Counted from the stretch's first letter, positions 1,197 to 30,889 are shown. The stretch: 64,000 nt of DNA from an uncultured Acidobacteriota bacterium (GCA_963700145.1 OY969474.1:4644916-4708915); one strand, 5' to 3'. The notes: generated by a model from the letters alone, not told the origin. Program-made: numbers and translations.

Positions 1197-1942
1197 CCGC
1201 CTTCGCGCCGCGCGCCGCCGGCGCGCCGCTCGAGCTGCCGCCGGGCGAGGTCCACGTCTGGGCGGCGCGCCTCGACCCGCCGCCCGAGCGGGTGGCGGCG
1301 CTGCGCTCGACCCTCGCCGCCGACGAGCGGGCGCGCGCCGACCGCTTCCGCTTCGAGGTCCACCGCCGCCGCTTCGCCGTCGGCCGCGGCCTGCTGCGCG
1401 AGCTGCTCGGCGCCTACCTGGGCGCCTCCCCCGAGCGGCTCGCCTTCGTCTACGGCGAGCGCGGCAAGCCCGACCTCGCCCCCGCCACCGCGCGCCCCGG
1501 CGCGCCGCTCCACTTCAACCTCTCCCACTCGCACGAGCTGGCGGTCCTGGCGGTGACCCGCGAGCGCGAGATCGGTGCCGACGTCGAGCAGCTCAAGCCG
1601 ATGGACGACCTCGAGCGGATCGCCGAGCGCTTCTTCTCGGCGCCGGAGAACGCGGCGCTGCGCGGGCTGCCGGCGGCGGAGCGGCAGCGCGCCTTCTTCC
1701 GCTGCTGGACGCGGAAGGAGGCGTATCTCAAGGCCGTGGGGGTCGGGCTGGCGGCGCCGCTCGACTCGTTCGTGGTGACGCTGGGGCCGGAGGAGCCGCC
1801 GCGGATGCTGTCGCTCGAAGAGGACGCGGCGCGCGGCGAGCGCTGGAACCTCTGGCACCTCGAGCCGGAGGAGGGCTACTTCGGGGCGGTGGCGGTCGAG
1901 GCGGCGGGGCTCGTGCTCCGCGCCTGGAAGATGGTGACCTGA
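1193..1942 (+). CDS. Sfp-type 4'-phosphopantetheinyl transferase
   Basis: Motifs FNLSHSHELAVLA, GADVE and KEAYLKAVGVG are characteristic of Sfp/EntD-family PPTases. The TTG start overlaps the TEII stop. Confidence 0.85.
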   Translation: MTAFAPRAAGAPLELPPGEVHVWAARLDPPPERVAALRSTLAADERARADRFRFEVHRRRFAVGRGLLRELLGAYLGASPERLAFVYGERGKPDLAPATARPGAPLHFNLSHSHELAVLAVTREREIGADVEQLKPMDDLERIAERFFSAPENAALRGLPAAERQRAFFRCWTRKEAYLKAVGVGLAAPLDSFVVTLGPEEPPRMLSLEEDAARGERWNLWHLEPEEGYFGAVAVEAAGLVLRAWKMVT

Positions 1943-3771
1943 GGCCGGCCCAGCCAGGCGTCGAGGCGCGCGGTCTGCTCGAGCGTGGCGTTGGGGTCGA
2001 CCTCCAGCCGCCAGCGCTCGGGCGGCTTCTCGCCGAGCACCACGGCGAGCGGGATCAGCCGCTCGCGGCGGGCGACCAGGAGCTCGGTCTTGTCCCCCGG
2101 CCGGAACGCCTTGAGCCGCTCCTCGAGCTTCTCCGGCGGCACGCGGTAGCCGCCCAGGGCGAGGATCTCGTCCTCGACGTTGACGCCGGCGGCGTGCCCC
2201 GGGGTGCCGCGCTTGACCTCGGTGACCAGGAGGCGCCCGTCCCGCACCTCGACCTCCACCCCCAGCCACCCCGCCGGCTCCTCGGGCTCGGCCTCCTCCT
2301 TCTTCCACTTCGAGTCCTTGAACCGCAGGCCGTACCAGGCGAGGGCCTCGCGGTAGTCGAGCTCGGCGGGGCTGGACACCGCCTGTCCCAGCCACGCCTC
2401 CTGCGGCCCGCCCGCCACCTCTGAGATCAGCGCCAGGAACTCCTCGTGGCGGTAGCCGTGGGGCGCCCCCGCCCAGCGGGCCCAGGCGCGCCGCATGACG
2501 TCGTCGAGGCTGGCCTTCCCGGCCGAGACCATGCGGATGCGGGCGTCGAGCAGGAACCCGACGAGCGACCCCTTGAGGTAGTAGCTGACCGTGGCGTTAG
2601 GGGAGTTCTCGTCGCGGCGGTAGTGCTTGATCCAGGCGTCGAACGAGGCCTCGTCGAGCGGCTGCACCAGCCGGCCCGGCTGCGTCTGCAGCCGCTCGAT
2701 GTCGCGCGACAGGCGCTTGAGGTACTCGTCGCGCGTCGAGAGCCCGGCGCGGTGCACCAGGAGGTCGTCGTAGTAGGCGGTCAGCCCCTCGGCGATCCAC
2801 AGGCTCGGGGTGTAGACCTCGGTCTCGTAGTCGAACGGCGGCTCCAGCTCGCGCGGCCGCAGCCGCTTGACGTTCCAGGCATGGAAGAGCTCGTGGCTGG
2901 CGAGGGCCAGCCAGTCGAGCCACCCCTCGCGGGTGCGCGCCTTCCAGCGGCTGGTCATGACGGTGAACGACTCGGCGTGCTCGAGCCCGCCCGTGCCCTC
3001 GACGATCAGGTTGAGGAAGACGAAGCGGTCGTACGGGAGGTTGCCCCAGAAGGCCATCTGCTCGCGCACCAGCCGCTCCAGCTCGGAGGCCGAGCGGGGG
3101 CCGTCCCAGACCCCGCCCTCCCCCTCGTTGGCCAGCAGGTGGCTGCGCCCGCCGACCTCGAAGCGGTGGAGGGCGGGGTTGCCGAGGAGGATGGGGGCGT
3201 CGACGAGGGCGTCGTAGTCGTCCGCGCGGTAGCGGTTGGGGCCGCCGACCGGCTCGAGAGCGGTCACCACCGACGCCCACTGCGGCGCCGGCTCGATCTC
3301 GACGAAGTGGGTGCGCTGGCGGTCGGCGGCGACGGTCAAGAAGGTCGCGGCGCCGTTCAAGAAGGCGAAGTCGCGCTCGATGAAGTTGCCGCGCACCGTC
3401 AGCTCCCGCCCGTAGAGACGGTAGCGGACGGCGATCAGCGGCCGCCCGCCGGCGATCACCCGCCAGCGGCTCTTGGACGTCTTCTCGATCTCCAGCGGGA
3501 ACCCTTCGGGCGTCGCGGCGGCGATCTGCTCGACGTTGCGCTCGTACTCGCGGACCAGGTAGGAGCCCGGGGTCCACACCGGCATCATCAGCTCGAGGTG
3601 ATTGACGCGGCCGGTGGGGATCAGCGCCTCGACCTCGACGGTGTGCGACTCCGGGCTCGGGAAGCGGAGGGTGTAGGTGATCGGCTCGGGCAGGGCGAGC
3701 GCGTGCCCGGCGGCCGTCGAGGCGCCGGCGAGCAGGAGGAAGGCGGCGAGGGGGAGGAGGCTGCGGCGCAT
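1876..3771 (-). CDS. M61 family glycyl aminopeptidase with a C-terminal PDZ domain; secreted (signal peptide)
   Basis: Signal-peptide-like N-terminus MRRSLLPLAAFLLLAGASTAAG. HELFHAWN (HExxH) zinc motif with downstream Glu, as in M61 peptidases. The C-terminal region is PDZ-like. The ORF-track ORF extends upstream, but the first Met followed by a signal peptide is at 3771. Confidence 0.8.
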   Translation of the reverse strand: MRRSLLPLAAFLLLAGASTAAGHALALPEPITYTLRFPSPESHTVEVEALIPTGRVNHLELMMPVWTPGSYLVREYERNVEQIAAATPEGFPLEIEKTSKSRWRVIAGGRPLIAVRYRLYGRELTVRGNFIERDFAFLNGAATFLTVAADRQRTHFVEIEPAPQWASVVTALEPVGGPNRYRADDYDALVDAPILLGNPALHRFEVGGRSHLLANEGEGGVWDGPRSASELERLVREQMAFWGNLPYDRFVFLNLIVEGTGGLEHAESFTVMTSRWKARTREGWLDWLALASHELFHAWNVKRLRPRELEPPFDYETEVYTPSLWIAEGLTAYYDDLLVHRAGLSTRDEYLKRLSRDIERLQTQPGRLVQPLDEASFDAWIKHYRRDENSPNATVSYYLKGSLVGFLLDARIRMVSAGKASLDDVMRRAWARWAGAPHGYRHEEFLALISEVAGGPQEAWLGQAVSSPAELDYREALAWYGLRFKDSKWKKEEAEPEEPAGWLGVEVEVRDGRLLVTEVKRGTPGHAAGVNVEDEILALGGYRVPPEKLEERLKAFRPGDKTELLVARRERLIPLAVVLGEKPPERWRLEVDPNATLEQTARLDAWLGRPQVTIFQARSTSPAASTATAPK

Positions 3772-3955: not shown

Positions 3956-5125
3956 GTGATCGCCCTTGGCAGCGAGCGGGAGCTGGAGCGCGAGGCGCCC
4001 TCGCTGTGGGCGGCGCTCTCGCCGCTCGGGCGGCGGCTGGCGGGCGGTGAGGCCGAGGCGGGGGCGGAGGGCGGAGCGTCCACGGGCGCGCCGGCGCTCG
4101 GCCTGCCGGAGCTGCGCCGGCGCTGGCGCGGCTGGCAGCGGCGGGAGGGGCCGGCGGCGTCGTCCACGCTGCCAGCCACGACGGTCGGGCTCTCGCACGC
4201 CCTGTCGCTGGTCGCGGACCTCTTCGCCGGGCCGGGGCGCGCGGTGGCGGTGCCGCAGCCCTTCTGGGGCAACTACCGGCAGTGCTTCGAGATGCGCAAC
4301 GGCGCGCGCCTTCTGACCGCGCCGGCCTACCGCGGCGGCCGCTTCAACCCGCACGCCTGGAGCGAGGCCCTCGCCGAGGTGCCGGCGGGGGAGCCGGCGG
4401 TGGCGATCGTCAACCTCCCCTCGAACCCCGGCGGCTACTCGCCGGCGCCGGCGGAGCGCCAGGTCATGCTCGACGCGCTGGTCGCGGAGGCCGGCCGGCG
4501 GCCGCTCCTCGTGCTCTGCGACGACGCCTACGCCGGCCTGGTCTTCGAGCCGGGCATCCCGGCGGCGTCCCCGTTCTGGGACTTGGCGGGCGCCCATCCC
4601 AACCTCGTGGCGGTCAAGGTGGACGGCGCGACCAAGGAGTTCTCCTTCTTCGGCGGCCGGGTGGGGTTCCTCACCTTCGCGCTGGAGCCGGACGGGGAGG
4701 CGGCGCGGGCGCTGGAGGCGATGGGCGGGCGGCTGGCCGCAGCGACGATGGGCGCGCCGGCCGCGGCGCCGCAGGAGGTCCTGCTCGCCGCCCTGCGCCA
4801 AGAGGGGATCGAGCGCGAGATCGAGACGGTCCGCGCCCTCCTCGCCGGCCGCTACCGCGCCCTCCGCGACGCCCTCGCCGCCGCCGACCCGGCCCTGCTC
4901 CATGCCCTGCCCTTCAACTCCGGCTGCTTCGCCCTCGTCGAGCTACCCGGGGGTCTGAAGACCGACGTCCACGCCGTCCGCCGCCACCTCCTCGACCACT
5001 GGGACACCGGCGTCATCTCCCTGGAACCCCGCTACCTCCGGATCGCCCACTGCTCGGTGGACGAAGCGGCACTGCCGGAGCTGGTACGGCGGCTGGAAGG
5101 GGGAGTAGGGGAGCTCGTCGGGTAA
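3956..5125 (+). CDS. PLP-dependent aminotransferase (class I/II fold)
   Basis: SNPGGYSP (NPxGxx) motif, LVLCDDAYAGLVFE and KEFSFFGGRVGF (Lys-containing) regions typical of fold-type I aminotransferases. GTG start at 3956 is chosen because upstream sequence overlaps the convergent peptidase gene. Confidence 0.6.
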   Translation: MIALGSERELEREAPSLWAALSPLGRRLAGGEAEAGAEGGASTGAPALGLPELRRRWRGWQRREGPAASSTLPATTVGLSHALSLVADLFAGPGRAVAVPQPFWGNYRQCFEMRNGARLLTAPAYRGGRFNPHAWSEALAEVPAGEPAVAIVNLPSNPGGYSPAPAERQVMLDALVAEAGRRPLLVLCDDAYAGLVFEPGIPAASPFWDLAGAHPNLVAVKVDGATKEFSFFGGRVGFLTFALEPDGEAARALEAMGGRLAAATMGAPAAAPQEVLLAALRQEGIEREIETVRALLAGRYRALRDALAAADPALLHALPFNSGCFALVELPGGLKTDVHAVRRHLLDHWDTGVISLEPRYLRIAHCSVDEAALPELVRRLEGGVGELVG

Positions 5126-7619: not shown

Positions 7620-8719
7620 TCCGCCTCTTCGGTGTACTCGTCAAGGACGGTGTCAGATAAGTGCGCGAGGTGCTTCTGCCCAGCAAGCTCGCGGAGGCTG
7701 TCGTAAGAGAGATACGTGCAGCTCTCGGCGAGCGGCCCTTTCTCCAGCAAGGAGAACACGGGGCGGCGAATCTCTTGGAAGACCTTTTCGCGCTTAACCG
7801 CGGGAGCGACGAGATGTAACTTGATGTCCATGTTTGGCTGAAGGGCCAGGAGGTCAGCCATGCGCAGGATGCCCGAATACACCGAGGTTGTGTGCTCCAC
7901 TTCAAAAGCCCGGACGATCGACCTCCCCCGCAGCCAGAGCACGTCAATCTGCTCGATCGTTCGGAGAGTGGTATCGTCATAGTTGAGCGGAAGGCGCTGA
8001 AGGAGGTCCTGACCATCGGTCTTCCACTCTTTGAGCACAGCCGCTCGGTCGGCGCGAGGAATCCAGATCGACAACCCCATGCTTGCACCGATCTGAGCAA
8101 TGAGCGCTTGGACTTTGGTCGACTCCCTCGTCTCGATTTCTGGTGCCTGTTGCGCGGCATCAATAACCCCGGAATCTTCGGGCACCGAGACTGTAACTAC
8201 CTTGTCAGGGCGGTTAACGGTATGGGTGGCTAGTTTCTTGATGTCCTGTTCATCGATTGGATAGGGCTTGAGCTCGGTGGATTGGAGCGTCAGCGTTTCG
8301 GCGAGGAACTTACCATCGCGGTCGTCGAGGCGCACCAAGCTGCTGCGGACCTTGCCGGTCCAGCCCGTAGAACCCTTCTCTAGATTTCGGGTGAAGGAGA
8401 GGCCGTTCCAAATTGCATCATCGTGGATTGGGATGGATTTGTCGATCTCCAGCCACACTCGTTCTCGAACGCGGAAGCGCAGGACGAACGGATCATCCTC
8501 GGGCAGGAAGAGCGATTTGTTATCAACGAAGGGCCCCTCAACAACCGCCAAGAGTCCAACCCACCGTGACAAGCGCGTGAGGTAGCACACGAACATATCA
8601 CCGGGTTTGACGCGCTCGGCCATTCCCTTATGGCGCAGGCGAAAGCCCGAAATGTCACGTGCTGAGCGCGTGAATGCGTCGTACGTCTCAGGAGAGCAAA
8701 TGTCGATGAAGTACGCCAT
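7616..8719 (-). CDS. Candidate modification-dependent restriction endonuclease: a PUA-like (EVE/ASCH-type) N-terminal domain fused to a C-terminal PD-(D/E)xK-like nuclease-like region
   Basis: N-terminus MAYFIDICSPETYDAFTR...KPGDMFVCYLT...WVGLLAVVEGPFVD fits the EVE/PUA pattern (YW/F..K..P..F....GD.V.FY......vG...V). C-terminus ...IDVLWLRGRSIVRAFEVEHTTS... is a possible D...ExE nuclease core. G+C is visibly lower than the flanks (by eye). Domain calls are inferred from motifs only. Confidence 0.45.
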   Translation of the reverse strand: MAYFIDICSPETYDAFTRSARDISGFRLRHKGMAERVKPGDMFVCYLTRLSRWVGLLAVVEGPFVDNKSLFLPEDDPFVLRFRVRERVWLEIDKSIPIHDDAIWNGLSFTRNLEKGSTGWTGKVRSSLVRLDDRDGKFLAETLTLQSTELKPYPIDEQDIKKLATHTVNRPDKVVTVSVPEDSGVIDAAQQAPEIETRESTKVQALIAQIGASMGLSIWIPRADRAAVLKEWKTDGQDLLQRLPLNYDDTTLRTIEQIDVLWLRGRSIVRAFEVEHTTSVYSGILRMADLLALQPNMDIKLHLVAPAVKREKVFQEIRRPVFSLLEKGPLAESCTYLSYDSLRELAGQKHLAHLSDTVLDEYTEEAE

Positions 8720-9954: not shown

Positions 9955-11213
9955 GCCAACGCCCCGCGCCGCGCCGCGCGGTGGAGCAGGAAGCCGCCGA
10001 GCGCCAGGAGGGCGGCGCCGAGGCCGGCGAGGACCGCGATGTTGGGGAGGACGTCGCGCAGGGTGCCCGCCGACTCGATGAGCGTCCGGTACCCGGTCGT
10101 CCCCCAGTAGAAGGGCGACACCGGCGACACGGCGCGCACCGCCCGCGGCAGCCCCTCGAGGTTGACGAAGCTGCCGCCCGCCATCGCCAGGACGAGGTAG
10201 AGGATCGAGCCGATGGTGGCGCCGCGGCGCTCGTTGAGCGCCAGCCCGTAGATCGTCGCCGAGGTGCCGGTCACCGCCAGGACGAGCGCCAGGGAGAGCA
10301 GGAGGAAGCCCGCCGGGTCCACCCCCCGCCGCAGCACCACCGCCCCGACGGCCGCGAGCACGCCGAGCGCGATGAGCGCGAGGACCGCCGTGTAGAGCGC
10401 CTTGCCGAGCACCAGCGTGCCGCCGCCGATCGGCCCCGCGAGCTGCCGCCGCAGCGTGCCCGCCGTCGACTCGGCGATGATGTCGCGCATCGCCAGGTCG
10501 CCGACCAGGAAGAGCGCGTAGACCGAGATCCCGGGCAGGATGACGAGGAAGATCAGCGAGACCTCGGAGCCGGAGTCCTCGCCCGCCGGCTGCGGCTGGA
10601 GCGACGCGGTGTCGAAGGCGATGACCGGCGGCGAGAGGACGGCCGCGGCGCCCTCGAAGGCGCGGCGCACGGCGAGCGCGACGGCGACCGTCGTCTCCTC
10701 CGTGGGCGGCTCCGCGCCGGGCCGCGCCGAGGAGGCGATCCGCTCGAGCGGCCCGCGCAGGACGCGCGAGCCGGCGTCGAGGACGTCGGCCAGCACGCGC
10801 GCGAGCTGCTCGGCGATCTCCGGTAGGATCCCCTGTGCCGGGTTGCGGACCACGGCGAGTTGCACCGGTTTGCCGTCGAGGAGGTTTTGGGTGAAACCCT
10901 TCGGGATGCGGAGGAGGGCCGAGGCCTCGCCCTTCTCCATCCGCGCGGCGCCCTCGGTCCCCACGACCTCGACCTCGACCAGCTCGGCCAGCCGCTCCGA
11001 CTGCAGGGCGGAGAGCAGGGCGTCCGCCGCGATGCCGCCGTCGCGGTCCTCGACCAGCAGATGGGCTTGCGGCGTGCGGTCGCCCCGCGCGCCGAAGGAG
11101 AGGGCGATCAGGAACGCGAAGACCACCGGGAAGCTGAGCACGATGAGCAGCCCGAGCGGCGACCGGGCCTTGCGCCGCAGGTCCTTCCCGACCAGCAGCA
11201 GGAGGGTGCGCAT
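9951..11213 (-). CDS. ABC-2 type transporter permease (second subunit)
   Basis: Real start MRTLLLLVGKDLRRK overlaps the ATPase stop (TGATG). The track ORF 9951..14207 is an overextended frame. Hydrophobic C-terminal six-helix region. Confidence 0.75.
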   Translation of the reverse strand: MRTLLLLVGKDLRRKARSPLGLLIVLSFPVVFAFLIALSFGARGDRTPQAHLLVEDRDGGIAADALLSALQSERLAELVEVEVVGTEGAARMEKGEASALLRIPKGFTQNLLDGKPVQLAVVRNPAQGILPEIAEQLARVLADVLDAGSRVLRGPLERIASSARPGAEPPTEETTVAVALAVRRAFEGAAAVLSPPVIAFDTASLQPQPAGEDSGSEVSLIFLVILPGISVYALFLVGDLAMRDIIAESTAGTLRRQLAGPIGGGTLVLGKALYTAVLALIALGVLAAVGAVVLRRGVDPAGFLLLSLALVLAVTGTSATIYGLALNERRGATIGSILYLVLAMAGGSFVNLEGLPRAVRAVSPVSPFYWGTTGYRTLIESAGTLRDVLPNIAVLAGLGAALLALGGFLLHRAARRGALA

Positions 11214-23599: not shown

Positions 23600-24670
23600 A
23601 TGAGCGAGCTGCGCGCGCTGCTGGCCGGGACCGGCGTCGCCGTGCCGCCGCGGCAGGTGGACAACCACATGCTGGCGCGGATCCTCGACACCAACGACGC
23701 GTGGATCCGCGAGCGCAGCGGCGTCGTCACCCGCCACTACGTCGAGCCCGGCATCGCCTCCTCGGACCTGGGGACGGAGGCGGCGCGCGCCGCCCTCGCC
23801 GACGCCGGGGTCGCGCCGGAGGAGCTCGACTACATCGTCTGCGCCACCGCGACCCCCGACCACTACCTGCCGGGGATCGGCACGATGGTGCAGCAGAAGC
23901 TCGGGATCGGCGCCGTGCCGTCGCTCGACATCCGCCAGCAGTGCGCCGGTTTCGCCTACGGCCTGCAGGTGGTGGACGCCCTGGTGCGCAGCGGCATCGC
24001 GAAGACCGTGCTCCTCGTCGGGGTGGACATCCACACCTCGCTCATGCCCTTCTCCAAGCGCACCTGGGAGGTGCTCTACGACCCCGCCGCCGGGCCGCTC
24101 GAGGAGGCGGAGCGCGAGTGGAACACCCGCTACCGCTACATCGTGGTGCTCTTCGGCGACGCCGCCGGCGCGATGGTCTTCCGCGCCGGGCGCGAGGACG
24201 GGCGCGGCATCCTGCGCTCCGCCCTCTGGGGCGACGGCAACCACAAGGAGATCCTCTACACCCCCGGCGGCGGCTCGGTCTTCCGCCCCTGGGTGGACCA
24301 CGAGCAGATCGCGCGCGGCGACCTGGTGCCGGTGATGGACGGCCGGCAGGTCTTCCGCCTGGCGGTGACGCGCATGCCCGAGGCGGTGCGCCAGCTCCTG
24401 GCGCAGGAGGGGGCGGCGGTCGAGGACCTCGACCTGGTGGTGATGCACCAGGCCAACCTGCGGATCAACGAAGCGGCGCAGAAGGCGCTCGGTCTGCCCG
24501 ACGAGAAGGTCTGGAACAACATCCAGCGCTACGGCAACACCACCTCCGCCACCATCCCCCTCGCCTTCCACGAGGCGCGCCAGGCCGGCAAGGCCCCGGA
24601 AGGCGCCCTCGTCGCCTTCGCCGCCCTGGGCGCCGGCCTCCACTGGGGGGCGGTGCTGATGCGGGCGTAG
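23600..24670 (+). CDS. fabH: 3-oxoacyl-ACP synthase III (FabH-like KAS III)
   Basis: Active-site Cys region DIRQQCAGFAYGL, HQANLRI, and YGNTTSATIPLA motifs. Confidence 0.85.
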   Translation: MSELRALLAGTGVAVPPRQVDNHMLARILDTNDAWIRERSGVVTRHYVEPGIASSDLGTEAARAALADAGVAPEELDYIVCATATPDHYLPGIGTMVQQKLGIGAVPSLDIRQQCAGFAYGLQVVDALVRSGIAKTVLLVGVDIHTSLMPFSKRTWEVLYDPAAGPLEEAEREWNTRYRYIVVLFGDAAGAMVFRAGREDGRGILRSALWGDGNHKEILYTPGGGSVFRPWVDHEQIARGDLVPVMDGRQVFRLAVTRMPEAVRQLLAQEGAAVEDLDLVVMHQANLRINEAAQKALGLPDEKVWNNIQRYGNTTSATIPLAFHEARQAGKAPEGALVAFAALGAGLHWGAVLMRA

Positions 24671-24744
24671 CTCAGCGCCCGGCTACTCGACGATGCCGGC
24701 CCGCAGGGTGCCGCCGTCCAGGTGGCCGGCTCGACGTCCTCGGC

Positions 24745-24990
24745 GGAGTACGAAAAGCCGGTATCAGAGCTTGATACCTCGGTATCGAGCCCTGATACCT
24801 CCGTATCAGCCGCCGCTACCCAGGTATCAGGCGCCGCTACCTAGGTATCAGGCGCTGCGACCTAGGTATCGGGCGCCGATACCTCCGTATCAGGCGCCGC
24901 TCCCCCTGTGTCGAGCGCTGATACTCAGGTATCACGGGCCGATACCCCCGTATGGAGCGCTCATACCTCCGTATCGACGCTCCCGACCTC
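24745..24990. repeat. Tandem array of about 11 units with a period of about 21 bp (consensus GGTATCAGGCGCCGCTACCTA)
   Basis: Direct visual periodicity. Each unit carries GTATC/GATAC half-sites. The overlapping ORF gives a heptad-like PRYQAPL repeat and is not called as coding. Confidence 0.8.
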
Positions 24991-25275
24991 TTCCTCCACC
25001 TACGTCCCCCGACTCGCGGAACACCAGCCGCTGGGGTTGCCGGGGCTGCCACCATCCCCCTCGCCTTCCACGAGGCGCGCCAGGCCGGCAAGGCGCCGGA
25101 AGGCGCCCTCGTCGCCTTCGCCGCCTTGGGCGCCAGGCGGATCTTCTTGAGCGACTCGGTGCTGTGCCCGGCGAAGAACGGCCCGAGCTGCGGGTCGGCC
25201 GCCATCCGCCCGATGAAGTCGTCGGTCACGGCGGCGAACGCGTACAATCGGGAAACGGGATCGTGAGGTGACGCC

Positions 25276-25476
25276 GTGATGAAGGGGATCGAAGAAGCAG
25301 TCGCCGCGCTCAGGCGCGACCCCGATCAGCCGGTGACGGCCGAGATCGACGGCCTGGTCATCGAGCTGCGGCACAAAGCCGACTCGACGCGGAGAGCTCG
25401 GCGGACGGCCGATGATGTCTTCAGGGAAGTGGGGAGCTGGGAAGGGGAGACACCAACACGGTCATCGCCCGCCTGA
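25276..25476 (+). CDS. Type II antitoxin (VapB-like) upstream of a PIN-domain toxin
   Basis: Small ORF immediately 5' of vapC. C-terminal ...FREVGSWEGE resembles VapB C-termini. No strong family call. Confidence 0.4.
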   Translation: MMKGIEEAVAALRRDPDQPVTAEIDGLVIELRHKADSTRRARRTADDVFREVGSWEGETPTRSSPA

Positions 25477-25844
25477 ACGGCAATCTCGCCGTCTCGGAGC
25501 GGCTTGCAGCGCTCAAACCGGAGGAAGTCGTCCTCTGCGCGCCGGTACTGGCCGAGCTCCACTTCGGCGCGAGCCTCTCGGCGCGCAGAGAGCAGAACCT
25601 CGGACGGCTGGAGCGATTGGCGGAGAGCATGCGCTTCCAGTCGTTCGATGCCGGGGCGGCTCGCCGCTTTGGAGACTTGAAAGCCTCGCTCCGTCGCCGC
25701 GGGGTCACCAAATCCGACTTCGATCTGGCCATCGCCGCCATCGCGCTCGAACTCGGCGCGATCCTCGTTTCTGAAGACGGCGCGTTCCACGGCGGCTCAA
25801 TAGCGGGGCTCCAGGCGGAGAACTGGCTGCTGAACGCCAGATAA
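25437..25844 (+). CDS. vapC: PIN-domain toxin VapC (start uncertain)
   Basis: The in-frame upstream extension gives GDTNTVIARL (the DTN motif of the PIN N-terminus) and FDLAIAAIALELGAILVSEDGAF (the conserved D of the PIN C-terminus). There is no ATG or GTG before the DTN motif; the first listed Met (TTG 25617) would truncate the PIN domain. It overlaps the vapB frame. Confidence 0.55.
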   Translation: MGRGDTNTVIARLNGNLAVSERLAALKPEEVVLCAPVLAELHFGASLSARREQNLGRLERLAESMRFQSFDAGAARRFGDLKASLRRRGVTKSDFDLAIAAIALELGAILVSEDGAFHGGSIAGLQAENWLLNAR

Positions 25845-25891
25845 GACGCTCCGCCGTCTAAGGGACCGGCGCTTCAGCGGCGTGCCCGCGC

Positions 25892-26335
25892 CTACTGCTC
25901 GACGATGTCGGCGCGCAGGGTGCCGACGGCGGCGAAGAGCTCCTCGCGCTCCTTCTGCCCGACCTTGAACTTGTCGAGCGTCGCCGTCAGGTGCTTGACC
26001 GCGGTGTCCCAGTGGGCCGCCGAGATCTTCATCCCCGCGTGCGACGCCTTCATGCTCCGCCCCGTGTAGTAGCAGGGGCCGCCGCTCATCTCGCAGAGCT
26101 GCTCGACGACGAGCTGCCGGATCTTCTTGAGCGACTCGGTGCTGTGCCCAGCGAAGAACGGCCCGAGCTGCGGGTCCGCCGCCATCCGTCCGATGAAGTC
26201 GTCGGTCACGGCGGCGATGGCGTCGTAGCCGCCCAGGCGCTTGTAGAGCGACGCGTCGTCAGCCGCGGCGAGCGGCGCCGCGAGGGCGGCCGAGAGCAGC
26301 AATGCGGCGGCGATGAGAGCCTTGGTTCGGATCAT
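25892..26335 (-). CDS. Truncated (2/2) hemoglobin, group I, with signal peptide
   Basis: YKRLGGYDAIAAVTDDFIGRMAADPQLGPFF and the HAGMKIS heme-pocket region match trHbN. N-terminal signal peptide. Confidence 0.8.
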   Translation of the reverse strand: MIRTKALIAAALLLSAALAAPLAAADDASLYKRLGGYDAIAAVTDDFIGRMAADPQLGPFFAGHSTESLKKIRQLVVEQLCEMSGGPCYYTGRSMKASHAGMKISAAHWDTAVKHLTATLDKFKVGQKEREELFAAVGTLRADIVEQ

Positions 26336-26431
26336 GGTTCCCTCCCGAGAGAGCTCGACTGCAGTCCATTGGCTTCTACGCGCGGGCCGAGCGCCCGGAT
26401 GAGTCCGAGTAGCGGCCGAACCGACTCCGAA

Positions 26432-26705
26432 TCAGTCGACGTTGAACACCGGACGTTCGCAGGTTGGACCGGCCTGTAGCTCGCTCTGCGTGTATCGGCT
26501 GTCTTGGTACAGCCGAATGGGATAGCAGCCTGTACCGAGACCGAACTCGACGACGTAGTCGCCTGGAAGCAGGCTGGTCCGAAGAACGCCGCGTTCCTTC
26601 TGGACGAGGCTCCCTCCATCGTCACCAAGCCAGATGTCCACCGATTTGGAGTTGCCGGTGATCTCGAGCTCGAGGTACGTGCGGCTCTCGTAGACGTGGC
26701 TCATT
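26432..26705 (-). CDS. Small hypothetical protein (island gene 4)
   Basis: ORF beginning MSHVYESRTYLELEITG. Low-G+C island. No domain recognised. Confidence 0.35.
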
Positions 26706-26875
26706 GTGCCGACCGTAGGAGAGAGTGAACTATCTAAGCGTGGGCATGGTAGCACCGTGACCGCGACCCTCTGCCTCCGACGCGATGCTGGCCTGTCACT
26801 GCCGGCTCCGTGCCGCCCTAACGTTCACGCTTCACCGGCGGATGGCAACGCCAGCCGTCCGGCGGAAGCTGGGGG

Positions 26876-27778
26876 TTAAACGGCACCGCTTCTGGCCTCG
26901 AGTTCACGTCTCACCTCGCTACGGAACACCGGCAACCATTCAGTAATGAGCTGTTGGAAAGCCTCGTCTAGCTGGGGCTCTCGCTCAGGAACTATCGAGT
27001 TCATCCGAATCGCCAGTGCCAAACCTGCTATGTTGGCTGCCGCCTTGGCGACTGGTTCTGATGCGAAGAGGTGAATCTCCTGGTTGAGCTCACTCACGCG
27101 CCGACCCTGCAGCTGGAGATCTTCTTCTACGCGAGGGAGCATGAGCTGAGCAGCCGGTCCACCCTGCTTCATAACGATGACGCGATTCTTCGCTGCTTGG
27201 TGGGCTCTTAGAGCGGCATTGACAAAGTCGGCATAGACCTTCTGGTGGGTCACTCCGGCCATATCGATCGAAGGACTGACTGGAGCTAACGGCGTAGTGC
27301 CTAAAGGCGGTGCTTGAGCGAGAACTCCGCGAAGTGCGCTAAGAAGTTGCCGATAGTTCTCCTCCGAGTATGGATCACCGCGCAGGTCAAAGTAGACCTT
27401 TCCTCGAAGAAATGAGGGAGCCGCCTCTCTCCAGTCACCTGACCGAAGTAGAGGAACGAACTTCCTGTCGTTGCGGTCAGTCATCACTTCGGCCGTAATG
27501 ATATGCCCTTCGTAACCGACGCCACCGATGCGTCGATCTGACTTCTCTTGGTACTTAGGGGTGCAGATCATGAGGACGAAGTCGCTGTCTCGGATGGCAG
27601 TTTCAATAAACTGAGGCAGTTGATCACCGGGAGCAACCTTCCACTCGTCCAAGATCAGGTCGATGCCGTCACTGCGGAGACGGGCACCAAGTCTCTTGAC
27701 CCAATCCTTGTGCTCCTCGCTATCCCACGAGTACGAGATGAACGCCGTGGGTATCTGTTTAAGAAGTTCGCTTGTCAC
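26876..27778 (-). CDS. TIR-domain protein (N-terminal TIR plus a C-terminal domain of about 160 aa with unknown function)
   Basis: AFISYSWDSEEHKDWVKRLGARLRSDGIDLILDEWKVAPGDQLPQFIETAIRDSDFVLMICTPKYQEKS matches the bacterial TIR pattern (FISYS, D, L, G, D, PG, I, AI, S, S, Y). G+C visibly low. Confidence 0.65.
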   Translation of the reverse strand: MTSELLKQIPTAFISYSWDSEEHKDWVKRLGARLRSDGIDLILDEWKVAPGDQLPQFIETAIRDSDFVLMICTPKYQEKSDRRIGGVGYEGHIITAEVMTDRNDRKFVPLLRSGDWREAAPSFLRGKVYFDLRGDPYSEENYRQLLSALRGVLAQAPPLGTTPLAPVSPSIDMAGVTHQKVYADFVNAALRAHQAAKNRVIVMKQGGPAAQLMLPRVEEDLQLQGRRVSELNQEIHLFASEPVAKAAANIAGLALAIRMNSIVPEREPQLDEAFQQLITEWLPVFRSEVRRELEARSGAV

Positions 27779-27861
27779 GGTCGATTCTTGTGCCGTTTAA
27801 CGGCGTATGAGTTCCGCTGCAACGAGGTTAGGTGACCCGCCGCGACTGTCGAGCAAAGGGT

Positions 27862-28347
27862 TCAGGTCGTTCGCTGGTAGTCGTCCAGCAGCTGAGTGAT
27901 GTCTCGCTGTGTGACGGTGAGATGATGAAGCAGGGAGTCGACTGGCGAAGGGCTGACGTGACTGCTTGAGCCAGTGGCGATGTGTGTGTGCAGGTAGTCG
28001 AGTTTAGCGTTGATGTGGTCAAGCTGGTAGCGCTGCCAGTCGAACCTGTCGAACAGACCCTCGTCGGCGAACAGTTCGCGACCGCTAAGCAGGACTTGTG
28101 CTGGGGTTGTCGTATCTAGGCGGAAGTTTGGAATCACAACCGGGGAACGCTGCAGGTAGTCGAGGCATTGCGCAATGCGATCGAGATTGAAGCGAAACGC
28201 CTTGAGGAGATTGGCGCGGAGCTGATGAGCTCGCGCTACGCGCTCCCGTTTCCATTGCTGCCGTGCCCAGAGCACGCCGAACACTGTTCCAGCGAAGGCG
28301 CTTAGGAAGGCGAAGAGGAGATTCCAGAGCAGCTGTTCCGTTGTCAT
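27862..28347 (-). CDS. Single-pass membrane protein (island gene 2)
   Basis: MTTEQLLWNLLFAFLSAFAGTVFGVLWARQQW is an N-terminal transmembrane helix, followed by a helical soluble region. An alternative start at 28407 is possible. Confidence 0.45.
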   Translation of the reverse strand: MTTEQLLWNLLFAFLSAFAGTVFGVLWARQQWKRERVARAHQLRANLLKAFRFNLDRIAQCLDYLQRSPVVIPNFRLDTTTPAQVLLSGRELFADEGLFDRFDWQRYQLDHINAKLDYLHTHIATGSSSHVSPSPVDSLLHHLTVTQRDITQLLDDYQRTT

Positions 28348-28431
28348 GAATGCTATCCGGGTCCTAACGCTACTGGGCTTCAGCGACGGCGGAGCCGCTC
28401 GCTGCAAGCCCTTGGTTAGGCTGCTGATTGA

Positions 28432-28935
28432 TCACCGAGCCTTTCCAAGCGTGCTTAACGCAACGATGGCTTCCCTAATGTTGGCGGCGACAATATTAGA
28501 TTGATCGAGGCGCCACCTGTTGTAGTGTGCACGAAGGACATCGACGAGCCTGGCTGCCTGCTGAATATCGCGCTGTGCTGGACCGAGATCGACCTCGTCA
28601 GGGATGCCTAGGCTCCTCATGAAGCCGATGACTCGCTCAAGATGAGCGACCAGTTGGCGGTGAGGACGTGTGAGTCGACCTTCTCGGAATTGCTTTGCCT
28701 TGTCCGTGTCCTCGAACCATGTTGGGTCCCACATCAAGGAGTCATTCGCAATCTTGGTCACATGAGCCACCACGGGCTCACCAATGAGCGAGTCGAATTC
28801 ACGATCATTGCGCTCCATGACCTCGCGATATGTCCGGACAATCTCCTGAAGGCCGGAGAGCGAAGTGAGGGACTGCATGTCCTGTGTGAGTACCAACGGG
28901 GATAGGAAGGCAGGTCGCGATGCATTATCTGTCAT
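28432..28935 (-). CDS. Hypothetical protein (island gene 1)
   Basis: 167-aa ORF in the low-G+C island. AT-rich putative promoter upstream (28940-29100). Confidence 0.4.
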   Translation of the reverse strand: MTDNASRPAFLSPLVLTQDMQSLTSLSGLQEIVRTYREVMERNDREFDSLIGEPVVAHVTKIANDSLMWDPTWFEDTDKAKQFREGRLTRPHRQLVAHLERVIGFMRSLGIPDEVDLGPAQRDIQQAARLVDVLRAHYNRWRLDQSNIVAANIREAIVALSTLGKAR

Positions 28936-29147
28936 GGCATTTCATCCTTGTTCTAGAATACTGAATCCTGCTCGCATGGTCAGCAGCCTAACCTCTGCTT
29001 ATACGGATTGGCCGGCTGTGGGTGGCGAGACGGGAGCCTCAGCCGCATCTCACGCCTGGTTATGAGTTAGGAGAGTGTAGCAGAGACTGCGTGCGAACAG
29101 GTGCGACGGACGTGTCGTCTATGCGGCGCTGGACGGGGTCAGAGTTT

Positions 29148-29190
29148 CGAGACCCCCGCCCAGATCCTTCGCTACGCTCAGGATGACGGC
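29148..29190. repeat. REP-like palindromic repeat family, half copy (CCCCGCCCAGATCCTTCGCTACGCTCAGGATGAC)
   Basis: The same family recurs at 30903, 49385, 56211 and 59672. Confidence 0.7.
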
Positions 29191-29221
29191 GCTGCGAGCT
29201 TCGGTCGGCTGGGCGCTACGT

Positions 29222-30889
29222 CTACGTCCCCGACTCGCGGAACACCAACCGCTGGTTCCCGGCGACGTTGGCGCGTTGCTGGACCTTCCCTGACGGCCAG
29301 CGCACGACCACCCGATCGGCCTTCGCGGCCCGCCCCAACCCGAAGACAGGCTCGACCTGCGACTGCGAGAGGTAGCTGCTGCCGGTGCGCACCAGCCAGC
29401 GCTGGGTGGCGCCGCCGGTGGTGACCTCGACGACCGTCCCCAGGCCGTCGCGGTTGCTCTTCGAGCCCTCGAGCCCGATCTTGAGCCAGCGGCCCTGCCC
29501 GCCGCCGGCGTTGGCGAAGACCTGGGCCGGGCCGCCGTTGTTGGTCAGCACCAGGTCGAGGTCGCCGTCGTTGTCGAGGTCGCCGTAGGCGGCGCCGCGG
29601 GCGACGCGCGGCTTGGCGAGGTCGCCGCCGGCGGTCGCCGTCACCTCTTCGTAGCGGCCGGCGCCGGCGTTGCGGAAGAGCTGCGTCGGCTGGCGGAACT
29701 TGACCTTGGTCTGCACGTTCTCGACCTCGGGGTCGAGGTGGCCGTTGCCGAGCAGGATGTCGAGCCAGCCGTCGAGGTCGTAGTCGAAGAAGAAGGCGGC
29801 GAAGGCGAGGGTCAGGAGGGTGCGGCGGCCGATCTGCGAGGCCGGCGCCACGTCGACGAAGAGCTGATTGCCCTCGTTGCGGTAGAGCGCCACCATCTCG
29901 TTGGCGAAGTTGCCGATCACCAGGCTGTGGCGGCCGCTGCGGTCGTAGTCGGCGGCGTCGATGCCCATGCCGCCGCGCGCCACGCCGGTCTCGGAGAAGG
30001 CCATGCCGGAGGCCACGCCCACCTCCTCGAACGTGCCGTTGCCGCGGTTGCGGTAGAGGAGGTTGGGCTGGGTGTCGTTGGCGACCGCGAGGTCGGGCCA
30101 GCCGTCCCCATCGAGGTCGAGCACCGCCACGCCGAGCGACTTGGCGGAGGGCTTGGAGATCCCCGCCTTCTTGGTCGCGTCCTCGAGCTTCAAGCCCCCC
30201 TTGTTGCGGTAGAAGCGCGGCGAGGCGCCGGGGTAGGACTCCGGCGTGCAGTAGGACTTGCTCTTGCCGTCGAGGGTGCAGAAGAGGTCGGTCTCCGGCG
30301 TCCAGGTGACGTAGCGGGTGGCGAGGACGTCGAGCCGCCCGTCCTTGTCGGCGTCGAGGAGAGCAACCGAGGCGCCGAACTCGTAGTCGCGCGACAGGCC
30401 GGCCGCCGCGGAGACGTCCGCGAACTTCCCGCCGTCGTTGCGCAGCAGGTAGTCCTGCCCGACGCAGGAGAGGTAGAGGTCGGCGTCGCCGTCGTTGTCG
30501 AGGTCGCCGGCGGCGCCGCCCAGGCAGTAGGCGGCGATGCCGAGACCGCTCTTCGCCGTCGCGTTGGCGAACTTGAGGCCCCCTTGGTTGGTGTAGAGCT
30601 CCTGCGTCGTCGCCTTCCCGGGCTTGCCCGGGAAGTTGCGGCCGTTGAGAAACAGCACGTCGAGCCGGTCGTCGCCGTTGGCGTCGAAGAGGACGACGCC
30701 CGGCCCCATCGTCTCCGGCAGCCACTTCTTGCCGAAGGCGCCGGTGTTGTGGGTGAACTTGATGCCGCTCGCGGCGGTGACGTCGGCGAATCGCGGGCCG
30801 GCGGGCCTCGCCGGCTGCCCCTGCCGAGCGAAGAGAGGCACGGCGAGCAAGAGACAGGTAACGAGGTACAACAAGGGTCGTCTGGTCAT
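29222..30889 (-). CDS. CRTAC1-family protein (FG-GAP/VCBS repeats plus ASPIC/UnbV C-terminal domain); secreted
   Basis: Signal peptide. Repeated DxDGDGxxDL motifs. C-terminal RWLKIGLEG...GLGTVVEV...SGSSYLSQSQVEPVFGLG matches ASPIC/UnbV. Confidence 0.8.
   Translation of the reverse strand: MTRRPLLYLVTCLLLAVPLFARQGQPARPAGPRFADVTAASGIKFTHNTGAFGKKWLPETMGPGVVLFDANGDDRLDVLFLNGRNFPGKPGKATTQELYTNQGGLKFANATAKSGLGIAAYCLGGAAGDLDNDGDADLYLSCVGQDYLLRNDGGKFADVSAAAGLSRDYEFGASVALLDADKDGRLDVLATRYVTWTPETDLFCTLDGKSKSYCTPESYPGASPRFYRNKGGLKLEDATKKAGISKPSAKSLGVAVLDLDGDGWPDLAVANDTQPNLLYRNRGNGTFEEVGVASGMAFSETGVARGGMGIDAADYDRSGRHSLVIGNFANEMVALYRNEGNQLFVDVAPASQIGRRTLLTLAFAAFFFDYDLDGWLDILLGNGHLDPEVENVQTKVKFRQPTQLFRNAGAGRYEEVTATAGGDLAKPRVARGAAYGDLDNDGDLDLVLTNNGGPAQVFANAGGGQGRWLKIGLEGSKSNRDGLGTVVEVTTGGATQRWLVRTGSSYLSQSQVEPVFGLGRAAKADRVVVRWPSGKVQQRANVAGNQRLVFRESGT

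Follow-up and report, generated by a model that had tools for sequence, protein, structure and literature searches.

In type II toxin-antitoxin (TA) modules, to which VapBC belongs, the C-terminus of the antitoxin is typically the part that binds the toxin, and loss of such a module is tolerated when toxin and antitoxin disappear in one step or when the toxin is lost first. Tandem arrays of short repeats are known from plasmids and phages as iterons or centromeres, for example F sopC and pSK41 parC, while repetitive extragenic palindromic (REP) sequences and bacterial interspersed mosaic elements (BIME) are extragenic palindromes. Homology-facilitated illegitimate recombination was reportedly described by de Vries and Wackernagel in 2002. 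In experiments on this type of recombination, the single crossover of a circularised fragment, which duplicates 109-950 bp of the homologous segment, was the dominant outcome (PMC3240628), and the loss of TA modules by deletion or by toxin pseudogenisation in high-turnover spots has been documented (Belot et al., Mol Biol Evol 2026, PMC13617665). Here we describe positions 24671-25891 of a 64,000-nt stretch of DNA from an uncultured Acidobacteriota bacterium (the window, in which all coordinates without a locus label are counted), a segment that lies between fabH and a globin gene and contains duplicated gene fragments, a 21-bp palindromic array and a vapBC remnant (Table 1). We read this segment, with a probability of about 0.8, as non-functional debris of successive rearrangements at a hypervariable spot between the convergent fabH and FG-GAP/CRTAC1-like genes. 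Nothing in it is new in kind: it is ordinary genome turnover through known types of rearrangement and TA decay, with no new mechanism.

The evidence comes from comparing the presence and absence of each segment over six loci, all of them metagenome assemblies, of which those carrying the same locus were reached via globin homologues and the array motif. In L165 the globin gene lies 98 bp downstream of the CRTAC1-like gene, on the same strand and without intervening cargo, and in L087 fabH is followed by an unrelated 126-aa open reading frame (ORF) and the globin gene, with no array and none of the junctions described below. L121 carries fabH, a 12-nt spacer, about 31 nt of the globin 3' end and an 8-unit array, after which 80 nt of the CRTAC1-like 3' end run directly into the final 122 nt of fabH, its stop, the 12-nt spacer and a complete, uninterrupted globin gene, and vapBC is absent. 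L089 resembles L121 up to this second copy, in which only 329 nt of the globin 3' end are present; next come the vapB promoter, vapB and an intact vapC of 136 aa and, beyond a 47-nt spacer, a full globin gene. L088 is organized like L089, with deletions of its own in the fabH copy (31 bp) and inside vapC (185 bp) and with vapB intact. In L003 the fabH stop is followed by 10 nt, TACAAT, intact vapB, intact vapC (TTG start, MIYLLDTNTVIARL), other cargo and the CRTAC1-like gene, with neither array nor globin. Set beside these loci, the window is the L089 structure minus two deletions, of ~269 bp and of 81-87 bp. The case may serve as a caution and a worked example, in that a patchwork seen in a single genome can be broken down into ordinary steps by aligning a few related assemblies.

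The first piece after fabH is a remnant of the globin 3' end, with the stop complement CTA at 24683-24685. A first-pass annotation of the window had recorded a decayed copy of this end at 24675-24740 versus 25884-25945; the copy is real but shorter, covering 24683-24716 versus 25895-25928 with 30 of 34 positions identical and one codon (CTG) fewer (E = 3e-5 within the window). In the orthologous loci this remnant is the tail of a 167-nt duplication composed of the fabH 3' end, the stop, the 12-nt spacer and 31 nt of globin, and the 167-nt internal duplicate in L121 matches at 92%. Beyond the array lies a further scar, missing from the first-pass annotation, where the 3' end of the CRTAC1-like gene (29222-30889) has been copied: 25007-25034 matches 29228-29255 at 96%, and the corresponding copy in L121 is 80 nt long (L121 2100-2179 versus window 29222-29301, 91%). 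This copy abuts a copy of the fabH 3' end, forming a junction of right flank to left flank (25046/25048), for which L121 displays a microhomology of only 2 nt (GC). The same array and the same junction recur in four assemblies (the window, ENA ERZ25039586, ENA ERZ25039550 and JGI Ga0214471). The true stop region of the CRTAC1-like gene at 29216-29227 reads CTACGTCTACGT, a 6-nt tandem duplication, CTACGT being present only once in the copy at 25000.

The fabH copy had been described as the last ~90 bp of the gene; 85 of 87 positions do agree, but the copy is not of the very end, as the last 36 nt of fabH (24635-24670) are missing from it. The internal globin fragment next to it, also reported earlier and confirmed here, is identical to the left fragment of L089 over all 108 positions versus 102 of 108 for the window's own globin gene. 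As the alignments show, the fragment is the rest of a 329-nt globin 3' fragment after a deletion of ~269 bp with its breakpoint at 25134/25136, which takes the end of the fabH copy, the stop, the spacer and about the first 221 nt of the globin fragment. Given that L089 and L121 keep the uncut segment, the fabH::globin chimera, initially taken for an insertion scar, is a deletion product. The globin copies also fall into two types. The left-hand fragments and the post-fabH remnant end CTA-CTC-GAC like the L121 globin and follow the 12-nt spacer, and the full globin genes to the right of vapC, including that of the window, end CTA-CTG-CTC-GAC and follow the 47-nt spacer, where L121 has the 12-nt fabH-globin spacer. 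The CTA-CTG-CTC character of the right-hand globins speaks for an entry of the right copy together with vapBC, and the 47-nt spacer probably arrived with both of them.

As to the TA module, the reported vapB-like ORF (25279-25476, 66 aa) and PIN-domain vapC are both found after the fragments. The conserved N-terminus of vapC indeed lies upstream of any start codon and overlaps the vapB frame: the PIN frame is open from 25416 (the stop being at 25413-25415), the Asp of DTN is at 25449-25451, and there is no ATG, GTG or TTG before 25617. Three explanations had been offered for this anomaly, a frameshift, a non-canonical start or a decaying toxin gene, and the last one stands. vapC lacks a start because of a deletion relative to its intact orthologues, 81 bp in length versus L089 and 87 bp versus L088 and L003, with a breakpoint at 25451/25452 between GAGAC and CGAC and the common microhomology GAC. 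The deletion takes 20-odd C-terminal vapB codons together with the vapC ribosome-binding site, the first 4-5 vapC codons and the first beta-strand, so that vapB has ~58 native residues left, after which its reading continues out of frame and ends inside vapC. A non-canonical start or a frameshift was rejected on the grounds that the intact orthologues reveal a plain deletion; taking CTG 25437 as the start would give M-G-R-G-D..., without the hydrophobic first strand.

In the intact relatives L003 and L089, a vapB gene of 75-86 aa overlaps the 136-aa PIN toxin gene, as in type II VapBC modules with a VapC of the tRNA-fMet endonuclease type, and in L003 the vapB ORF (1888..2148) shares its last 4 nt with vapC, which starts at 2145. 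vapB is also called as a complete gene in L088, where it has 82 aa and again overlaps the vapC start, and in L089, where it has 75 aa. By contrast, the window pair is dead. Its toxin retains the PIN domain (PF01850, 4.2e-12 from profile position 4, versus 6.9e-14 from position 1 for the intact L089 VapC), but it has no complete toxin ORF with a start and N-terminal strand, and no complete antitoxin overlaps or abuts the toxin start from upstream. On the remnant, Pfam PIN scored above its cut-off and the matching NCBIfam VapC models stayed below theirs; VapB matched no Pfam family. In a VapC homologue search L003 was the sole close relative (91%), the next being at 71%; close homologues go under the JGI name 'tRNA(fMet)-specific endonuclease VapC'. 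The window vapBC is thus best described as a probable pseudogene pair, inactivated in a single step by the joint deletion.

Together with its relatives the pair forms a natural TA decay series at nucleotide level in uncultured Acidobacteriota, from the intact modules of L089 and L003 through a toxin-only deletion in L088 to the joint deletion in the window, and this series fits the published model of acquisition and erosion (PMC13617665). As in that model, the module occupies a high-turnover spot flanked by core genes, and related genomes have lost it independently: in L088 the toxin was disrupted, and in the window one deletion took parts of both genes. Unlike in that model, the host belongs to another phylum, no TA-linked transposase or integrase is found here, and the junctions are resolved to the nucleotide.

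From the segment homologies, junctions, deletions and presence or absence of segments we infer the direction, order and route (circle integration or tandem duplication) of the events as follows. The starting point would be a compact ancestor of the L165 type, in which fabH converges on globin and the CRTAC1-like gene follows on the same strand as globin, with a unit of less than 1 kb. In a first event, the stretch that begins 122 nt ahead of the fabH stop and extends 80 nt into the CRTAC1-like 3' end would have undergone either tandem duplication or re-insertion as a circle through a single crossover, creating one illegitimate junction between the CRTAC1-like 3' end and the fabH 3' end. The first copy would afterwards have lost its globin except for ~34 nt, and now houses the array. 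A second event may have brought in a piece of ~1.1 kb from another allele, consisting of vapBC, the 47-nt spacer and a globin 3' end with an extra Gln codon; this circle would have closed at an illegitimate joint between globin nt 329 and the vapB promoter, and one homologous crossover in the resident globin would then leave a 329-nt globin fragment, vapBC and a full globin gene in a row. Deletions at 2-5-nt microhomologies would have followed, removing 36 nt from the CRTAC1-like 3' copy and, in the window, ~269 bp with fusion of the fabH copy to the globin fragment, as well as the 81-87 bp whose loss probably inactivated toxin and antitoxin together.

In this reading of two nested events, each event leaves one illegitimate joint plus a direct duplication, and both marks are found at the locus, namely a novel junction of right to left flank and direct host repeats of 167 nt for the first event and 329 nt for the second. 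Campbell-type integration likewise produces one illegitimate joint with a direct duplication of 100-950 bp, a range into which both repeats fit. Different from the experimental cases, the mechanism here is read from natural sequence only, and a tandem duplication would equal the product of the first event.

The array, whose size of ~11 copies had been correctly estimated, is built of the unit GGTATC-N7-GATACC plus 2 nt. With at most one mismatch allowed, GTATC-N7-GATAC occurs 7 times in the window, always within the array, versus 0.30 expected. The unit number is 8 in L121 versus 11 in the window, and the difference of 63 bp corresponds to three units. Because the array is present in L121 without vapBC, it is older than vapBC at the locus. 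It matched no Rfam family and gave no BLAST match in plasmids. A dispersed repeat family was rejected, since there was no copy of the motif elsewhere in the window and none in the first set of 80 related loci fetched; the array may be likened to REP/BIME in its short palindromic units between convergent genes, but it is not dispersed over the 64 kb and the related loci. It resembles iteron and centromere arrays in its ~20-bp tandem units with an internal inverted repeat and a period of two helical turns, and differs from them in that its units are decayed, restricted to a single locus and linked to no replicon.

Outside the orthologous arrays, GGTATC-N7-GATACC was later met only in loci that searches with the motif itself had brought up. 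Scans for two adjacent GTATC-N7-GATAC units returned 6 viral and 47 metagenome loci, all of which except L121 are unrelated in sequence and mostly of low GC content, and in the metagenome scan the only homologous copy of the array was the same locus in L121. Against the 6 viral loci of the array motif, three control palindromes matched to it in composition returned 18, 9 and 0. Kinship with phage or plasmid iterons was considered and homology is not claimed, as the control palindromes are about as frequent and the matched loci are unrelated. Several of the retrieved arrays lie in phage ORFs and encode DTxVSxx heptads (e.g. L116), and the corresponding frame of the window array carries two TAG stops. 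Among phage-like contigs, 21-bp-period arrays of GTATC-N7-GATAC-N4 were seen in L116 (1113-1979), L085 (~8050-8120), L086 (~4440-4510) and L109 (~1750-1830). These arrays lie within ORFs, place their DTxVSxx heptads after a winged-helix-like N-terminus and resemble origins embedded in replication-initiator genes; they are generic and not homologous to the window array.

We treat the array as a locus-specific minisatellite. It might instead be a functional cis-element, either the orphan iteron, centromere or operator of a lost replicon or a stalling hairpin that provokes recombination, of which the other scars would be by-products. Such a role would agree with the period of two helical turns, the retention in four assemblies, the left half-site GTATC being kept in 53 of 55 cases, the location of rearrangement junctions 9 nt and 43 nt from the array ends, the existence of similar 21-bp palindromic arrays in phage contigs, and unit 1, which on the minus strand and followed by TTTT is weakly terminator-like for the CRTAC1-like direction. 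The strong folding (z = -7.6) points the same way, although it is what any palindromic array is expected to show. However, the units are only ~70% alike with decayed right half-sites, their number varies, and the identity between genomes (95-98%) is no higher than that of the flanking pseudogene pieces. Between fabH and the CRTAC1-like gene of the window there is no Rep, ParB, ParR or similar partner gene, no regulator gene adjoins the array, the controls show that the motif is not special, and further copies are lacking in the window and the related loci. On balance a functional array is unlikely. That it is specifically a maintained hairpin or protein-binding element which blocks forks or transcription between the convergent genes, and so causes both the density of junctions and the turnover of cargo, appears quite unlikely to us; if true, the array would be a sequence-encoded recombination hotspot.

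The patchwork itself, as first described, is borne out by the fragment homologies and junctions and points to illegitimate recombination. Its attribution to one mobile segment, which would have carried array and vapBC between fabH and globin and made all duplicates at once, draws on the crowding of all features within 1.2 kb, on a GC content (63-69%) lower than that of the core (~75%) and on the absence of vapBC from L121. This last point does support vapBC as an insertion, but as a later arrival at a locus that already had the array and the fabH copy. In L121 the array occurs together with the globin remnant and the CRTAC1-like 3'::fabH 3' junction but not with vapBC, and in L003 vapBC occurs with none of these three, so that the features do not go back to one TA-bearing segment. 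The fabH::globin fusion is a later deletion missing in L089 and L121; the repeats on either side consist of 87-329 nt from host genes and are not the short duplications of a target, terminal repeats are lacking, and no recombinase gene is present (no transposase or integrase ORF in 24671-26335, where no sign of a transposon, insertion sequence or integron cassette was found; IS110 occurs only in L088, elsewhere in the spot). We consider a single segment very unlikely. An empty site with fabH converging on globin had been anticipated and is seen in the second copy of L121, whereas the distant relatives have fabH converging on the CRTAC1-like gene without globin; likewise, comparison of the syntenic loci did yield a vapBC-free allele, again L121, but one that still has the array and duplicated fragments. 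A chimeric or mis-joined metagenome contig is scarcely credible, for although repeats of 87-330 nt in the region can confuse assemblers, junction and array recur in the four assemblies, which come from different samples and sources, and the differences specific to the window are clean deletions at microhomologies.

Several points also weigh against the stepwise history that we prefer. The presumed donor arrangement, vapC converging on a globin with the extra Gln codon and without an upstream globin fragment, was not found in the VapC-homologue or motif searches, and no genome with the array beside a full CRTAC1-like gene turned up in the searches. A tandem duplication and a circle integration would end in one identical product and are therefore indistinguishable. 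The identities do not date the events because all copies differ by ~4-6%, recombination among strains could have shuffled the states, so that an order of events drawn from presence and absence is not a phylogeny, and L089 has probable indel errors, with fabH called in pieces. The origin of the array is not explained by the proposed steps either.

Table 1. Features of the fabH to CRTAC1-like interval and its bordering genes (window coordinates)
Feature	Position	Strand	Evidence or remark
fabH, beta-ketoacyl-ACP synthase III, intact, 356 aa; left core gene	23600..24670	+	NCBIfam NF006829 1.9e-97; Pfam ACP_syn_III/_C
12-nt fabH-globin spacer and globin 3'-end remnant (~34 nt kept)	24671..24716	-	stop complement CTA
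Array, ~11 decayed 21-bp units	24760..24990	.	Tandem Repeats Finder: period 21, 10.3 copies, 70% matches; repeat search
CRTAC1-like gene 3'-end copy, last codons and stop	25000..25046	-	E = 1e-7 to 29222-29262
fabH 3' copy of 24548-24634	25048..25134	+	85/87 (98%), E = 2e-40
Globin internal fragment	25136..25243	-	102/108 to 26116-26223
vapB promoter region (TACAAT) and truncated vapB	25244..25451	+	97.6% to L088 and L089
vapC (PIN) remnant without start codon, ribosome-binding site and first 4-5 codons	25449..25844	+	
47-nt spacer	25845..25891	.	common to L088 and L089 (97.9%); absent from L121
Group 1 truncated haemoglobin gene, intact, 147 aa, hydrophobic N-terminus	25892..26335	-	Pfam Bac_globin 2.1e-16
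Low-GC cargo (~55%), window-specific	26425..28985	-	GC profile; 26424-28986 without similarity to L087-L089
bSEFIR-like TIR gene	26876-27778	-	PADLOC bSEFIR 1.5e-65; Pfam TIR_2
Three cargo ORFs without family	26432-26755, 27862-28407, 28432-28935	-	
FG-GAP/UnbV_ASPIC (CRTAC1-like) gene, intact; right core gene	29222..30889	-	Pfam on L088 orthologue

The wider context of the segment was examined through loci anchored on FabH, which place the window in the Thermoanaerobaculia (Acidobacteriota). In nine relatives with ~70% FabH identity, fabH converges on the CRTAC1-like gene at a distance of 110-1040 bp, and in the window this interval spans 4.55 kb (24671-29221). L001 and L002 represent the closest species, and in both of them similarity to the window breaks off precisely at the fabH stop codon. 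The bare convergence in the nine relatives and the end of similarity at the fabH stop in L001 and L002 mark the interval as a variable spot. Unrelated genes follow downstream in L001 (from 11071 onward) and L002 (from 3790 onward), including a 141-aa helix-turn-helix-like ORF that occurs twice, inverted, and a large subtilase-like ORF, and the CRTAC1-like gene was not found within 10 kb in either. Globin is absent from all 80 FabH-anchored loci, and the idea that it is the native partner of fabH throughout the class was rejected on this count (0/80), a globin adjacent to the CRTAC1-like gene being confined to the nearer subclade. Homologues of the window globin carry the name 'group 1 truncated hemoglobin', and an exact look-up of the window protein in public assemblies returned no record.

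The GC profile drops from ~75% in the core to 63-69% over 24750-26400 and to ~55% over 26400-29100. The last of these regions, with its bSEFIR-like gene, looks like recently acquired defence cargo within the fabH/CRTAC1-like interval, and the cargo between the globin start and the CRTAC1-like stop differs in every related assembly. It consists of DUF4145, an IS110 transposase and a 447-aa ORF in L088 (6469-9860), of Tox-REase-9 and three small ORFs in L087 (199-2927) and L089 (88-2860), and of other ORFs in L164 (839-2699), and L165 is free of cargo there. With bSEFIR, Tox-REase-9, IS110 and TA modules among its contents, the interval is a cargo hotspot, in keeping with known high-turnover sites at which TA and defence genes gather. 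In the same interval of L019 (11070-11560), two small back-to-back ORFs on the reverse strand, TA-like by eye, stand with another small ORF. L165, a more distant relative, carries fragments of the CRTAC1-like gene on the far side of globin (~10700-11010; e.g. a stretch encoding FFFD.DLDGWLDILLGNGHLD), which indicates that duplicated gene fragments occur at this spot in other lineages too.

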